Counted from the whole stretch's first letter, positions 42,001-48,000 are shown. The stretch: 63,952 nt of DNA, filler included, from Candidatus Woesearchaeota archaeon (GCA_047603125.1; 6 parts of 6 records of this genome joined end to end with filler, not necessarily neighbours in it); one strand, 5' to 3'. Numbers: made by a program.

Positions 42001-45000
42001 GCACCACTACGATATCGTGGTTTATGCGATTTAGAAAAAATTTATAGGACTACTGTAAAGTGGATGAAACAAAATAATTTCAAAGTCTTTCAAAATTCTT
42101 ACAAAGATAAAGTTTCAGGCCCAGGTGTGAGTGAAATTGAAATAAAATTTGAATCGAAATTAAAAGTGGATGAATATCATCGTTGCTTGTTTAAATTTGT
42201 ACTCAAAACATGGGATACACAAAAAGTGCAAACTGAAGATGGAAAAATGCTCTATAATGGACGAATAGACATTAACATCAAAGGAAGCATTGAAACAGAC
42301 TGGCAAGGAGCCTATGATGGCAAGACCACGCTGCGAGATTTAATGGGCAAAGTCGTCTATAATTTGAAAAAAAACGATCCCGATCAATATTATGAAGATT
42401 GGTTTCGCGAGCGCATTTATGAATTACAAGAACAAATTAAACAGATTATAGGTATTCAAACATGAGTGAGAAAAAAGTACTTGTTCCCCACATGCAACTC
42501 ACGCATAAGGGCACACTGGACTGTAACAGCATAGAGCACACGATACTAAAATCTCTAAAAAAAAGAGATTATCAACTTGATGACCAGTCTTATGATATAG
42601 AACAGACCCCAGATGGACTAAATCAAGCAATCACCTACACGTTTGTAAAACAAGACACAAAATATGGTATTTCTAAAATAACAATCACAAGTTCATTTAC
42701 GCATCTCAAACCCGTCGTATTAAAAACGGATGTCCAAACGACATTATTTTCAGGAGAATTCACATTAACATTTAAAGGACAAACCATTACAGAACATGAA
42801 GGAAGAATTGCACATAAACCATGGCTTTATTTTGAAAAAATGATTTTAAGTAAATTCGTCTCACGATCTTTTTTTCCAAGACCTGGAACGGACATTGCAG
42901 ATACAATTTTTGATACAAAAAAACAAGTGGAGCATTTACTAAAACATGAGTGAAGAATTTCGCATAAATGAACGAGAACTTTCTTTTACAGGGTATTTTC
43001 ACATTAAAGAAATTAAAAAAATAATAGAAACACATATTGCTCAAAAAGGATATGATAAGCAAGAGATTGTTCATGAAGTTCAGCACAGAAAAGACGGCAA
43101 TTACACGTTTATCAAATTATATCCCATACGCCGTTTTACTGATGAGGAAACCTTTACACTCGAGCTCACCTATGGCTTTGGTAGTATTACCCAAGAAAAA
43201 TTAAAAGGAACAGTTTATGATAAAGGAACATTTTTTATTTCGATGGGAGGCACGCTCGATGTGGATACCGCAGGCAAATGGTCTTCATTTTATGATGGAC
43301 TCGGGCTGCTTATTCGTTTTATAGGAAATATGTTTGTATTCAAAGAACATCATCAAAGCCTCATTGACGATTGCAAACAAGACAGGGATGAGCTCTATCA
43401 AGCACTTCTGAGTTATTGTAATGGGCAAAAAATAAACCGATAACCATTTAAATACCTGTTTTTGCCTCAACACCTATGCACGGGTAACAAAGTCTGGTCA
43501 AATGTGCAGGACTTAAGATCCTGTGGCGTACGCCTTCGTGGGTTCAAATCCCTCCCCGTGCACTTTTTCTTAGCCATTATGTGCTAAATAATAGCAAAAA
43601 TAGAGACTTGTTGCGCTTATCATAAATGTTGTATAAAAAATTAGAAACACAATTTGTGAAAGATAAAATAAAAGAACAAAATGCACACCAATTATGAGAA
43701 AAAAGACAAATGCCATTATTTGTAATTTCCAAAAATGTCTTGCCCATGCGAATTTAACTGCACAACTAAATGAACTTGTTTTCATAAGACCAGCTAAAAA
43801 CGCAAATAAATAGCTACAAAGAGCATACACCAGTCCTGCAAATACTCCATACACTAGAAATAATGCGCCTCTGGCTAGTATATTGGAAGCATATGCGATT
43901 AAAAAAGGGATAACTAACAATACTTGCAATACTATGAGCAAAATTAATGGAAGTAAGAGCACAAACCCTACAAAAACACTCAAAGAAAAAAGCATGTTCC
44001 AATATGAGGTTTTTACAAATTTCTCCTGAGCTATTTTTTGAAAAATAAACGCACTCAAAAATGTAACAAGTGCAATTGTTACTAAAAAAAGCATCATAAA
44101 TTGATTTTGTGCACTCACTGAAGGCTCAAGTGAAAGCATGACTTCTTGTGATGCCGGTAGAATATATACAAATGTTTGCCAACCTGCAAGTAGGGCAAAA
44201 AACCACCAACATTTCTCAAAAATATAAACTACTTGTTCGTATATACTTGTACTCATCAATGCTTATGCAGGTTTCATCATTTATAAGTGTTGAGGAACTT
44301 TCGTTTTTGATAATACATTATAATGCGGCGATTTTTGAACAGCGGTTCATCTTGCGAATTTCTCCGGTGCCAAGCTTCGCGAAATCCTGATTATGCGTCA
44401 AGGCATTATAATTTGTTACTGTTTAAAACCACTTTTATCTGTGATTCATACTACAAGTAATATCAATAATGCTCCCTACCTACCAATCCATTTTTTTCGC
44501 AGTTCTAAAAATGTACCATCATGTATAGATTGTCGAATAGTACGCATCAATTCTTGCATAAAATGAACATTATGTATTGTTGCAAGTTTGTGATAGGAAA
44601 GATCTTTAATTCTATGCAAATGTCGTAAATATGCCCGCGAGTATTTTTGACAAACAATACAAGAACAATTTGAGTCAATTGGTCCCATATCAGATTTATA
44701 TTTTGAACCATCAATATTTATATGAAATTTGTTTTTCACAGAACCACCATTTTCTGGACTCACATATAGACTTCCTCGTCGTGCATTTCTTGTTGGCGAT
44801 ACACAATCAAAGGTATCTACGCCCATGCTCACCCCATCAAAAATATTTTCAACATCACCAATTCCTAATAAATGTCTTGGCCGATCATCTAATAGCGGTG
44901 TAATCCAACTGAGCACTGTTTGAAAATCATTGACTTTTTCTGTGCCAAATGATCCTCCTATTGCAATTCCCTCAAATGGTTGTGAGAGTACAAACCGAGT

Positions 45001-48000
45001 TGATTCTTCTCGTAAATCCCTGTGCTCGCCACCTTGAATGATTCCATAAAGTGCTTGTTTAGGATCTTTATGTTTGAGCGACTCCAACTCCCAACGATGT
45101 GTTCGTTTCAACGATTCTTTAGCATATTCATAACTCACTCCTGGTGGCGTACATTCATCAAAAGCCATAATCATTTCACTTCCAATGACTGATTGTATAT
45201 GCATGGACTCTTTGGGACCGAAAAAATGCCACGTACCATCATACACAGATTTAAAATGAATGCCATCTTCAGTTAATTTGGCATGTTGGTCAACTTGTTT
45301 TTGTGTTGTTTTTTGTGTCGAACCAAATTTACTAATCATTTGATTCATTCCAAGACCAAGAGAAAATGCCTGAAAGCCTCCCGAATCAGAAAAGAAAGGT
45401 TTATCAAAATTCATAAAGCCTTGGATACCTCCTGCTTTTTTTAATACTTCAAGACCGGGACGCAAGAAGAGGTGATAGGTATTTGTCAATGCACACTCTA
45501 ATTGAAGGTTCTCTAAATCTTGACTATCCAGTCCTCGTAGAGAACCACGCGTTGCAACACTGACAAAATGTGGTGTTTGTATTGTACCACGACGAGTTTT
45601 TATCAGACCTACCCGAGCAGCAGTCTGTGAATCTGTTTTTTGTATATCAAAGGAAAACTGAGCCATTTGGATAAGCAAAGCCCTTCTTTTTAAAAGATTT
45701 ACTCGAATTTTCGCAATGTTTAAAAAGAAACTCCAACGCCGTGCTCATTGGTGATGATATGACATCAAAAACAAAACATGAAAATACTACGCATCATTCA
45801 ACAAGACGCGTAGAAAACACAAATCAAAACAATCCAATGATGTGGATTGCGGTCGTTCAAACCGTTCTTTTATTTGTGGTCGTTCTTCAATTAGGAATGC
45901 TTGAAGTAGGAACAAGTGCACCCGCACAACAACCTGCACCAGCTCCACAGCCTGCCCCACAACCTGGCGAGCAGCAACCCGGACAACCACAAGAAATTGA
46001 TATGGAATCATTGCTCACACCTACTAGTAGAATTATTGGTGATAGTGATGCACCTGTGACCATAATTGAATATTCTGACTTTCGATGTGGCTTTTGTGCA
46101 AGATTTCATTCCGAAACATATGAACTGCTAAAAGAAGAATACATTGACACAGGAATTGTTCGCTTTGTCTATAAAGACTTTCCAGTTGTCGGCGGTCAAG
46201 AGGCAGCAGAAGCAGCATGGTGTGCGCAGGAGCAAGGTCAATTCTGGGAATACCATGATTTGGTTTTTGAAAACCATCAATCAATCTCGAATGCAAATCT
46301 AAAATCATGGGCGGCTCAACTTGGCTTAGATACAGCACAGTTCAATGAATGTCTTGATTCAGGCCAGTATGAAGAGCGTGTATTAAGCGAAGCTATTGTT
46401 GCAAGAGATTTAGGCGTACAAGGAACTCCAACTTTTATCATTAACGGAGAAATTCTTGTCGGCGCTCAACCATTTGCGGCATTTGAACAAGCTATTGCAG
46501 CTGCTTCAAATTAAGGCATTGAGTAACTAACCCATGGGGCGTAAAAAAATGCCCTGTTTTTTTTATTCTTTCAAATTTATCCGGCCATTGTGTCGGATTA
46601 TTTTTTATTGCTTGAATGTGATGCGACTCGTATTGATAAACAACGGGCAAGTGTTTTTCTAAATATGCCTGTAATTGTGAAATTGTTTGAATATGCTTTT
46701 GTTTTGCAAGAATGCAAAGTCGACTTGCTTGCTCCAGCTCCTCTGTTTTTTGCTCAAAGCTATACCACGCAAATTTCTTTTGTAAAAACAGACTCATTCT
46801 TCCCGGTGTGAGTTCTTGTTCACTTCCTTGTTTTTGTACATATAACCGTTTTATTTCTATAAACTCCTCCTCAATTAAATCTAACATTGCATTCAATGCT
46901 TGCATTTTTTTCTGCGTCTTCTCATCCACACCTATTTTTTTATAATTAACATGATGTTCCATATTCGCCCATGCATCATGGAGCGCCGTGCGTATTTGAA
47001 TTTCAACTTTCATATCACAAAAATGAACGATGCAGTGATGCGCCGTATAATTAAATGAACCCGATGTATGTTCGAGTTGATGGTCTATTGCGAACTCTTG
47101 TTCGATTTTTTTTCGTATTCTCTCAATATCATCACCAAATAAACACACAATTCGTGCGCCAACAATATCCGTACATTGGACAAAGGGTTGTTGATATTTT
47201 TTTTGCTTGACTTTTGCCAGAAACGAAGATTGTTCTTTTACACGAACATGTATATAAGAAAGTGCTACATCACCAAAACAAGAACGGAGCTTTTGCTCCA
47301 ATTGCCTTGCGACTTTTTCAAATACTGCCCTTTGTTTTTGATATTGTTGCTCAAGCATAGTTTTGCAAGCTCATCTCCAATTAAAAATATATCGCTTATG
47401 AATTGAGTGCTTGGGATAAATGCACAAAATAGGGGTGTGCTTGCTCTTTTGCAAGGCGCTGGATGATAAGCTCAGGAGTACTTTTTGCCAGACGTCCAAT
47501 TACAGGATTATGATCGACAATGAGTTTATTCTGCTCATCTAATCCCTTCGCTTCTATGCCATCTATACGGATTGAGGCGTGCGATGTAAACACATTTCCT
47601 AAATGAGATGCAAGCACCAAATGTGCTCCTTGCTTTGAGAAAAAATCCATCGTTTTTGCAATAATAACACTTGCAACACTTGGCTCTGTCACAGATTCCA
47701 ACTCATCAGCTAAAATAAGAGCATTTTTAGGATTTACTTTTGATAACTGTGAGAGCATCGTCTCAAAAGCCCCTTTTTGTGTGCTTCCTTTAGATTTTGC
47801 AAAATAATAAATCGCCTCATAATCAGGAATACTTTTTGCACCACTCACAGGAAACCCCATTTTATGCAAAATGACTGATTGAATAATATGCTCTAAAAGC
47901 GTTGTCTTTCCCCCACTATTTGCACCTGTTAATACGATGCTCGCATGTTCTTTTCCAAAATGATACGTAATTGGTTGCGGATTATCTAAAAGAAGATTCT

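Follow-up and report, generated by a model that had tools for sequence, protein, structure and literature searches.

Thiolation of U34 is attributed in the reviews to MnmA in bacteria and organelles and to NcsA/Ncs6 in archaea and the cytosol, and Q and xo5U are treated as marks of bacteria and eukaryotes. To our knowledge, NcsA is the only enzyme that reviews name for s2U34 in archaea. As far as Tgt is concerned, bacterial QueA, QueH and Tgt have already been published for DPANN archaea (Castelle et al. 2021, PMC8204110). The genome analysed here (Candidatus Woesearchaeota archaeon, GCA_047603125.1; 100% complete, 0.98% contaminated) belongs to a DPANN archaeon, the closest homologs being labelled Woesearchaeota/Nanobdellota. 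An earlier note on this DNA had presented Tgt and queuosine as new for archaea, which is contradicted by the 2021 paper and by the order itself, where most genomes have a Tgt of the bacterial type (31 of 41); archaeosine TGT occurs in 0 of 161 genomes. The new point is MnmA.

The window, that is, the whole stretch of 63,952 nucleotides that was analysed, consists of six contigs joined by N spacers. The genes for MnmA, TrhO, the methyltransferase and Elp3 and all four GUN tRNAs lie outside it, and the substrate tRNAs for the proposed wobble enzymes were all found in the genome. The features are as follows:

38182..49932, no strand: contig C12, the true context of tgt
44476..45678, minus strand: tgt, bacterial-type tRNA-guanine(34) transglycosylase of the GGS[LF]G / HLLGIG subtype, on contig C12
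44314..44424, no strand: dispersed repeat of ~105 bp bounded by short terminal inverted repeats, next to tgt on its downstream side
43570..44259, minus strand: hydrophobic protein of 229 aa without Pfam family, downstream of tgt
43478..43563, plus strand: tRNA-Leu(UAA), a U34 tRNA in the vicinity of tgt that is no substrate of Tgt
C1:59752-60813: mnmA, beside the suf operon
C35:39330-40244: trhO
C35:14688-15215: TrmR-like methyltransferase (PF01596), 24 kb from trhO
C17:4669-6405: elp3

A bacterial-type Tgt and the base it would insert

The tgt reading frame encodes 400 aa if TTG is the start; the more probable start is the ATG at 45666, which gives 396 aa. The protein scores 433.2 bits against TIGR00430 (cut-off 306.75) and 126.8 bits against the archaeosine model TIGR00432 (cut-off 350), and gives the one PF01702 match of the whole genome (six frames, E<=1); the arcTGT C2 domain PF14810 was not found here (absent from 5/5 genomes tested). 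The alignment identifies D98, D174, C176, Q215 and G241-G242-S243-F244-G245, together with L271, D291, V293, T296, R297 and R300, and a Zn site formed by C338, C340, C343 and H369. The catalytic Asp pair, the guanine-binding Asp/Gln/Gly and the Zn site are kept (D98, D174, Q215, G242, D291, C338/C340/C343/H369); the Z. mobilis counterparts are D102, D156, Q203, G230 and D280. The predicted fold has an insertion of ~25 low-confidence residues after the GFQ motif and a TM of 0.81-0.85 to Z. mobilis TGT, and 50/50 of the matches listed are bacterial TGT. Thus the bacterial-type Tgt of the earlier note is present and intact, as the only gene of its family and without an archaeosine TGT beside it. 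From its sequence, it very probably acts by G34 exchange on the GUN tRNAs for Asp, Asn, His and Tyr. The note's own worry, that G15 is the target of an archaeosine-type enzyme in short or split form, could appeal to the lack of another TGT in the genome and to G15 in many tRNAs, but the failed TIGR00432 model, the missing C2 domain in 5/5 genomes, the lack of any preQ0 synthesis found, the sequence and fold nearest to bacterial Tgt and the linkage of relatives' tgt to QPTR/QueA make it very improbable.

Orthologs with 50-54% identity are present in three same-family genomes, and in trees the orthologs from same-family genomes cluster with the proteins of this genome; the Tgt tree comprised 70 rows (FastTree, midpoint root, no clade test), with 54 mostly Bacteroidota/Bacillota rows left out. 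A scan of the genome contig collection with the single Tgt protein gave no match, and the alignment scan returned, among the matches listed, mostly generic bacterial Tgt. The GGS[LF]G subtype is common to CPR bacteria and DPANN; the order's majority clade has another subtype (21 of 30 loci). Because same-subtype tgt adjoins QPTR in three genomes (G016, G024, L111) and queA in G008, this subtype is linked to Q metabolism. QueA is found in two of nine same-subtype genomes, once beside tgt, and the pocket therefore does not force queuine. As a predictor of QueA absence the pocket type was rejected, QueA being missing in 7/9 genomes of this subtype and in 13/21 of the other.

The exchange of Val233 for Gly widens the TGT pocket for queuine (PMC5699537, PMC6165067), and a GGSLG pocket has been modelled to accommodate queuine in the tgt-only bacterium Anaplasma (PMC11570991 supplement). 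The GGSFG pocket of this Tgt appears Gly-opened: G245 aligns to Gly233 of the V233G mutant, in a register uncertain by one residue (MAFFT shifts one gap), with no Val at the 233 position in either register. GGSFG is not an exact match to the motif GG[LS][AS]G of the published text. Cys158 is retained as C176 in FDECT, where eukaryotic queuine enzymes have Val. Regarding supply, the statement that no preQ1/queuine synthesis or salvage gene is recognised was borne out, in searches that left out QueD/E/F/G/K/L: QueA, QPTR/YhhQ, Qng1, QueC and QueT were not found in this genome, the sole QueC match being MnmA, and the QueA, QPTR and QueH of relatives gave nothing as tblastn queries.

Since QueA, QueC, QPTR, QueT and Qng1 were not found and the pocket is Gly-opened, direct queuine scavenging would be the likeliest source. 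The inserted base would most likely be free queuine from a host or the environment, a reading held with modest confidence. It is rather unlikely that preQ1 is the end product, and quite improbable that Tgt has no base supply. A G34-type Tgt working without queuosine, either with scavenged preQ1/preQ0 as end product (as in Bartonella) or idle, is somewhat less likely than not. It agrees with the missing supply genes, the kept Cys158, the queA adjoining same-subtype tgt in G008 and the final preQ1 mark documented in B. henselae (PMC11570991). Against it stand the lack of Val at position 233, the occurrence of QPTR without QueA in five of nine same-subtype genomes, which is the published queuine-salvage profile, the presence of Qng1 in G008, and the fact that known transporters are missing from many predicted salvagers.

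The ~105-bp repeat occurs at 25 places of the genome, 21 of them near full length, without pattern match in metagenomes; it is MITE-like and outside the pathway. It was rejected as a riboswitch on account of this genome-wide repetition, of a folding that at best equals that of shuffled sequences and of the lack of an Rfam match. The 229-aa membrane protein was likewise discarded as transporter of Q precursors, as it belongs to no family, has unnamed atlas matches and is not QPTR/QueT.

MnmA and the archaeal U34 thiolase

The mnmA product reaches 418 bits against TIGR00420 (cut-off 236.95), is also above the cut-off of NF001138, and has three Pfam domains. Aligned to E. coli MnmA (2DER), it shows SGGVDS, C48, D98-M-L-C101 and C196, which makes it D-type, and orthologs with 67-74% identity are found in four same-family genomes. 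Both the presence of a bacterial MnmA and the absence of NcsA, as claimed before, were confirmed: a profile built from 15 relatives' NcsA-type proteins found MnmA itself as best match in this genome (39 bits), and the search with alignment A2 found nothing. Among 161 genomes, 8 carry MnmA and 142 an NcsA/TtuA-type thiolase; none carries both and 11 carry neither. MnmA occurs only in relatives that are devoid of the usual archaeal enzyme, and it has probably replaced the NcsA-type thiolase. The eight genomes comprise at least three MnmA lineages, therefore repeated gene displacement is indicated. From the repeated swap and the lack of any genome with both, it follows that the two unrelated thiolases appear interchangeable on archaeal tRNA. 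The relatives' NcsA-type proteins pass TIGR00269 in 4/4 cases, with 165-220 bits against NcsA NF047749 (cut-off 500) and 186-228 against TtuA (cut-off 450), a shortfall against both equivalogs that, like the 11 genomes with neither enzyme, speaks against the reading; in one relative (G025) the gene stands two genes from elp3. The displacement would identify this NcsA/TtuA-like gene of the order as the U34 enzyme.

MnmA is, in all likelihood, a U34 thiolase: through C48 / D98-x-x-C101 / C196 it would adenylate and thiolate U34 of tRNA Lys(UUU), Glu(UUC) and Gln(UUG). The mnmA gene adjoins suf genes in this genome, G003 and G096, and SufS is the sole cysteine desulfurase found by tblastn in the genome; the sulfur, and perhaps the Fe-S cluster of MnmA as well, would probably come from the adjacent SufBDSC operon. 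Elp3 is present (590.7 bits), as in 5/5 genomes tested, and MnmG was not found in this genome; therefore, U34 would continue to receive its C5 side chain by the archaeal route, with Elp3 supplying it and MnmA the s2 group of a hybrid xcm5s2U34. The claim that position 34 is marked in the bacterial way is supported for the G34-type Tgt, the MnmA in place of NcsA and the intact TrhO, but not for the whole set, since Elp3 is kept and MnmG absent. Elp3 had been reported earlier together with TYW1 and TYW3, for which one motif match each was obtained.

The A34 tRNA-Thr(AGU), which had been said to fit the bacterial enzymes, does exist. Nevertheless, TadA was not found in the genome (the sole PF00383 protein scores 36.7 against TadA NF008113, cut-off 150, and resembles dCMP deaminase/ComEB), and the same tRNA is present in G004, a genome with NcsA but without MnmA and TrhO. 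That it travels with the bacterial set is not supported; BLAST recovered none in G003, G007, G008 and G009, in a search that also missed known Thr genes. TiaS was looked for in this genome as well and not found.

TrhO and the TrmR-like methyltransferase

CXGGXR is the essential loop of TrhO (Sakai et al. 2019, PMC6599085). The TrhO announced for this genome is indeed there, with 269.1 bits against NF001133 (cut-off 170), the UPF0176_N, Rhodanese and Rhodanese_C domains and the intact active loop C177-T-G-G-I-R182-C183 (CTGGIR); CXGG[IV]RC is found in 25/25 archaeal TrhO examined, and the motifs align to the solved tRNA U34 hydroxylase 9J5O. Orthologs share 58-61% identity in five same-family genomes, and TrhO occurs in 23/161 genomes. 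It is plausible that TrhO makes ho5U34 under O2, a hint of a mark unseen in archaea; judging from the protein, O2-dependent ho5U34 in four-codon-box tRNAs (Ala, Val, Pro, Thr, Leu and Ser) is likely when oxygen is present. The U32 protein of contig C30 reaches 177.7 against TrhP NF011996 (cut-off 534), with PF01136 only and no PF16325.

The U34 targeted by TrhO could also be contested by Elp3. TrhO might be marginal, producing little ho5U, either because Elp3 already fills C5 of most U34 or because the target is another. Elp3 in all five genomes tested, the patchy distribution of TrhO, the lack of a credible downstream TrmR and the little effect of single trhO deletions in E. coli and B. subtilis point in this direction. 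On the other hand, the three-domain architecture and active loop are intact, identity of ~60% is held across four genera, and a single tRNA, with anticodon UGC, was found for Ala, 42% of whose codons have C, U or G in third position. A marginal TrhO is regarded as fairly unlikely. When the loss of Ala(GGC) was set against TrhO, the pattern search proved insensitive (1 match in a complete genome) and low-threshold ARAGORN gave noise.

R86, R90 and R178 are the TrmR-specific conserved arginines (Ryu et al. 2018, PMC6158493). The methyltransferase gene noted earlier is real, its best PDB match being TrmR 5ZW3 (E 3.6e-12), narrowly over catechol O-methyltransferase (7.7e-12), but the methoxy-uridine assigned to it is not supported: of those three arginines only R90 is kept, R86 being replaced by Tyr and R178/R181 falling in a deleted stretch, and the orthologs retain none of them (R90 in 0/3). 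Any ho5U34 would probably not be methylated further to mo5U.

Origin of the genes and comparison with known systems

The genes of the three enzymes are genuine and intact, and they are native to this genome. The 70-contig assembly, the bacterial-type sequences and some bacterial labels among the top matches could suggest bacterial contamination of the bin; this is largely refuted, as C1 carries L31e, S19e, archaeal DnaG and TopoVI-B, tetranucleotide correlations are 0.986-0.998 with codon use inside the genome's range, same-family genomes share orthologs and local synteny (in G007 tgt adjoins radB), and no joints are seen in the contigs of 4 runs, which belong to 2 studies. The DNA is present in lake-water metagenomes of two studies; among the data sets listed as carrying it there is no RNA data set.

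The three enzymes are separate stories, not one module. One oxygen-adaptation package of an oxic-water lineage, with O2-using TrhO and a D-type MnmA for air-sensitive Fe-S NcsA, is unlikely. TrhO does occur in 5/8 MnmA genomes and 18/153 others, the D-type lineages f1 and f68 both have TrhO, a class I ribonucleotide reductase lies on the trhO contig and lake water carries the DNA; but the overlap is due to two lineages alone, another three displacing MnmAs are of the C-type and come without TrhO, the genes lie on three contigs, C35 also carries a putative anaerobic NrdD-type gene, and D-type MnmA is itself reported to require [4Fe-4S] (PMC8053098). The preferred explanation, which is quite probable as a whole, is that a family-level clade gained MnmA, Tgt and TrhO piecemeal, followed by vertical inheritance, with the activities, substrates and products that we infer from the genes, motifs, distributions and neighbourhoods.

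More tentatively, these genes may form a hybrid anticodon chemistry of host-derived Q34, Elp3+MnmA/SUF xcm5s2U34 and O2-dependent ho5U34. If true, Q would be inserted directly without a known transporter, ho5U34 would let one tRNA-Ala(UGC) read four Ala codons, and Q and ho5U would be met for the first time in archaeal tRNAs, as would a repeated MnmA-for-NcsA swap across the domain boundary. Natural Elp3+MnmA hybrids would be offered, and queuine would become, through the orphan Tgt of a symbiont, a metabolite drawn from a partner cell.

With respect to the described systems, MnmA resembles the D-type enzymes (E. coli 2DER, B. subtilis MnmA/YrvO; PMC7025502, PMC8053098) in PP-loop, C / DxxC / C motifs and three domains, and differs in its archaeal host, with Elp3 and not MnmG found, and with SufS as sole desulfurase found. 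TrhO matches YceA/YbfQ (Sakai et al. 2019) in domains and CTGGIRC loop, but that enzyme is known from bacteria and eukaryotes, and here its host is an archaeon that has Elp3 and in which no TrmR is convincing. The methyltransferase shares with TrmR (YrrM) the PF01596 fold and kept or similar M38-region, G62, S68, D133, K136 and R90; it differs in R86, in R178/R181, in its distance from trhO and in orthologs without R90. The Tgt is like the queuine-salvaging enzymes of tgt-only organisms (Anaplasma; C. trachomatis, compared by description) in lacking Val 233 and in a genome where QueA/QueH were not found, and its relatives pair with QPTR as in salvage; unlike them, it keeps Cys158 in a genome without QPTR. 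Finally, in the DPANN of Castelle et al. (2021) the tgt gene lies together with those of QueA and QueH, whereas here it has no such neighbours and is of another subtype; the likeness lies in a bacterial Tgt replacing arcTGT, as in Woesearchaeota/Pacearchaeota.

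Identity and native origin of the three genes

An earlier note had proposed that the genome under study (Candidatus Woesearchaeota archaeon, here G000; other G numbers are compared genomes) encodes bacterial-type Tgt, MnmA and TrhO for position 34 of its tRNAs. The three calls were borne out, the genes being intact and the scores as stated: 433.2 bits for Tgt with TIGR00430 (cut 306.75), 418 for MnmA with TIGR00420 and 269.1 for TrhO with NF001133. The genome (1.12 Mb, 70 contigs) is rated 100% complete and 0.98% contaminated, and it is treated as that of a DPANN archaeon because the labelled closest homologs of its proteins are mostly from Woesearchaeota/Nanoarchaeota; the name of the order is likewise deduced from these labels. 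The window consists of six contigs linked by N spacers, and its features are the following:

38182-49932: contig C12, which carries tgt
44476-45678 (-): tgt
46492-47358 (-): small protein with a RelA/SpoT domain (PF04607 at 62.5 bits), located two genes away from tgt
41977-43443 (+): three tandem ORFs of ~163 aa that look paralogous
44314-44424, 9936-10034 and 33712-33815: dispersed ~105-bp repeat (25 places in the genome), with short terminal inverted repeats and AT-rich flanks

The three genes are native to this genome and are not contamination. Tetranucleotide correlation is 0.992 for C12, 0.998 for C1 (mnmA) and 0.986 for C35 (trhO), in a range of 0.95-0.998 over 44 contigs, and codon use among 497 genes falls at percentiles 77 (tgt), 9 (mnmA, scored with an upstream extension included) and 10 (trhO). 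C1 also carries the archaeal markers L31e, S19e, archaeal DnaG and TopoVI-B. Orthologs of all three genes were found in genomes of the same family; in G007, trhO is still paired with DHH, and the block tRNA-Thr(CGU)-mscS-mnmA is preserved as well. No joints appeared in C12 when it was compared with contigs from 4 runs, none of which singly covers all of it; tgt DNA is present in 8 lake-water runs from 2 studies.

The repeat is MITE-like, with 21 near-full copies (identity about 79-93%); a central deletion is seen in two. No Pfam or NCBIfam match was found for the two of the three tandem ORFs that were scanned. By eye, long insertions resembling inteins are seen in a SufB-like ORF (1255 aa, L001:2401-6168) and an NrdD-like ORF (1029 aa, L003:16440-19529), and a ThiF/E1-like gene lies next to two ORFs, one JAB-like and the other possibly E2-like (L001:17380-19900; C1:67382-70755).

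Tgt and its substrate

The only TGT detected in a six-frame PF01702 search scores 126.8 with the arcTGT model TIGR00432 (cut 350). The residues for catalysis, guanine binding and zinc coordination line up with those of the Z. mobilis and E. coli-like enzymes (Z. mobilis numbering, in part after PMC5699537), and the predicted AlphaFold structure (pLDDT 83.9) gave Z. mobilis TGT as every one of the 50 matches listed. Within the order, 31 of 41 genomes give a PF01702 match, and all eight Tgt proteins tested from relatives score above the cut-off of TIGR00430 and below that of TIGR00432. The latter model (E<=1e-60) matched none of 161 genomes at least 90% complete and does match four control archaea; therefore, the absence of arcTGT is an order-wide trait.

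Thirty Tgt loci (G004, with tgt in pieces, was excluded) split into two subtypes: the larger, of 21, has DD/DH-[VM] together with GGL-x-[IL]G, and the smaller, of nine including G000, has FDECT, GG[SC][LF]G and H[LM]LGI. The G000 protein clusters, in a FastTree of 70 rows, with those of G007, G003 and G008 (support 91); this group falls in a clade whose proteins come from Nanoarchaeota/Woesearchaeota and Paceibacterota, and which has Saccharibacteria and Nomurabacteria as neighbours. No donor is named because this tree is midpoint-rooted and without a clade test; its source labels are not fully reliable. The majority clade (21/30 loci, L006-L033) has Val, Met or Leu at Cys158 and mostly Ile or Leu at Val233, in members both with and without QueA; G007 and G009, of the same genus, have different subtypes.

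The G000 enzyme has Gly at the Val233 position and retains Cys158. Exchange of Val233 for Gly is described, in the passages cited, as giving queuine room in the pocket (PMC5699537, PMC6165067), and the motif of q-salvaging TGT as GG[LS][AS]G, a GGSLG pocket being modelled 4.0 A from queuine (Quaiyum 2024, PMC11570991). Among the nine same-subtype genomes, QPTR without QueA occurs in five, QueA in two (beside tgt in G008, which has Qng1 too) and neither in two, including G000. QPTR adjoins tgt in G016 and G024, and likewise in a Thermoplasmatales locus (L111). It seems slightly better than an even chance that the G000 Tgt inserts queuine directly. Pocket type was ruled out as a predictor of QueA loss, since QueA is absent from 13 of the 21 genomes of the other subtype.

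Probable replacement of the NcsA-type thiolase by MnmA

MnmA is of D-type (PP-loop, C48, D98-x-x-C101 and C196 when aligned to 2DER), following the D-/C-type classes set out in the relevant part of PMC7025502. TIGR00420 matches 8 of the 161 genomes, spread over five families and at least three distinct lineages in the tree (the f68 lineage, D-type; G006/G028/G091, C-type; the G000 clade plus G096, D-type). An alignment-based search with the order's own proteins found NcsA/TtuA-type proteins in 142 (four of them, G100, G116, G170 and G173, unpublished). The two never occur together (0/161) and 11 genomes have neither (Fisher p 8e-9, kin not being independent). In the family of G000, six of ten genomes carry MnmA, none of the six with an NcsA-type gene. 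The displaced proteins pass TIGR00269 and miss both the NcsA and TtuA cut-offs; one such gene lies two genes away from elp3. As they are never found in one genome, this mutual exclusion, the best argument, suggests that both thiolases act on U34.

The suf genes adjoin mnmA in G000, G003 and G096, and the sole desulfurase found in G000 by tblastn is SufS, which can feed MnmA directly in T. thermophilus according to a section of PMC7025502. There D-type MnmA is given as Fe-S independent, and in part of PMC8053098 as [4Fe-4S]-dependent. Because Elp3 is present and MnmG was not found in G000, U34 of its Lys, Glu and Gln tRNAs would combine an archaeal C5 group (Elp3) with a bacterial thio group (MnmA). 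Elp3 occurs in some bacteria too, so that this pairing may not be unique. TYW1 and TYW3 are presumably present in G000, as judged by motif matches.

TrhO, the tRNA set and known systems

TrhO has all three domains and an intact CTGGIRC loop; as CXGG[IV]RC, the loop is retained in 25 of 25 proteins examined. NF001133 matches 23 of the 161 genomes, 5/8 with MnmA versus 18/153 others, the overlap coming from two lineages only. The accompanying methyltransferase, present also in G003, G007 and G008 and absent from G005, was rejected as TrmR: of the residues R86, R90 and R178, used as the test in part of PMC6158493, it keeps R90 alone, which three orthologs lack as well. The methoxy step previously proposed was therefore dropped. 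A bacterial-type DusB (L002:15512-16432, C35; TIGR00737 334.5/293.3) lies ~700 bp from trhO, and a second Dus-like gene is on C62. A peptidase U32 protein (413 aa, L249:69-1310, C30) has the E/C/C motif and scores below the TrhP cut-off; it occurs in 5/5 genomes tested, is frequent among Woesearchaeota/Nanoarchaeia matches, and is possibly a second hydroxylase, a candidate O2-independent one acting on RNA.

ARAGORN made 38 tRNA calls, of which one is spurious, another mis-called and a third a duplicate. All four GUN tRNAs are among them, as are Lys/Glu/Gln(UUN) and six U34 tRNAs of four-codon boxes; an elongator tRNA-Met was not found, and the set is therefore incomplete. The second 'Ala(UGC)' (L255, C32:5178-5307) reads as an intron-containing tRNA-Ser(UGA). 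The only Ala tRNA found, Ala(UGC), fits expanded decoding in this incomplete set (codons ending in U/C make up 27% of those for Ala, and codons ending in G 15%). An intron-containing tRNA-Ile(UAU) lies at C39:32618-32725, AUA being 23% of Ile codons; TiaS was found in 0/5 genomes, G000 included. A tRNA-Thr(AGU) (L217:3103-3174, C56), 650 bp from Thr(UGU), stands in place of Thr(GGU), in a domain where tRNA-ANN genes are nearly absent according to part of PMC6000648. Its A34 is probably unmodified, because no TadA was found in G000. The same tRNA occurs in G004 (L232:1313-1384), which has an NcsA-type protein and neither MnmA nor TrhO; its supposed link to the bacterial set was given up on these two grounds. 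What stands of the original interpretation is a G34-type Tgt, the MnmA swap and an intact TrhO; methoxylation and a connection with A34 are no longer part of it.

The novelty claimed for Tgt did not hold: the gene is ordinary in the order, and the bacterial Q pathway is reported, in the portion of Castelle 2021 (PMC8204110) concerned, for 34 archaeal genomes, including 12 from DPANN. Some Woesearchaeota proteins are already auto-named Tgt and MnmA by NCBI. The mostly open-access literature searched yielded no paper on MnmA in DPANN or Woesearchaeota and no report of a repeated MnmA-for-NcsA swap or of TrhO in about one-seventh of the order's genomes; the supplement of PMC8204110 has no MnmA/TrhO row under six identifiers, in a table that may be selective. 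Sakai 2019 (PMC6599085), as far as it bears on this, treats trhO as a gene of aerobic bacteria and of eukaryotes, and its main text lacks the word "archaea". Both the swap and archaeal TrhO are directly testable. The stand-alone, open-pocket Tgt of G000 is a modest twist on a known theme, and in the passages cited MnmA is only bacterial or mitochondrial, while Q/xo5U are marks of bacterial and eukaryotic tRNAs only (PMC7025502, PMC10067955, PMC7694415, PMC6599085, PMC6000648).
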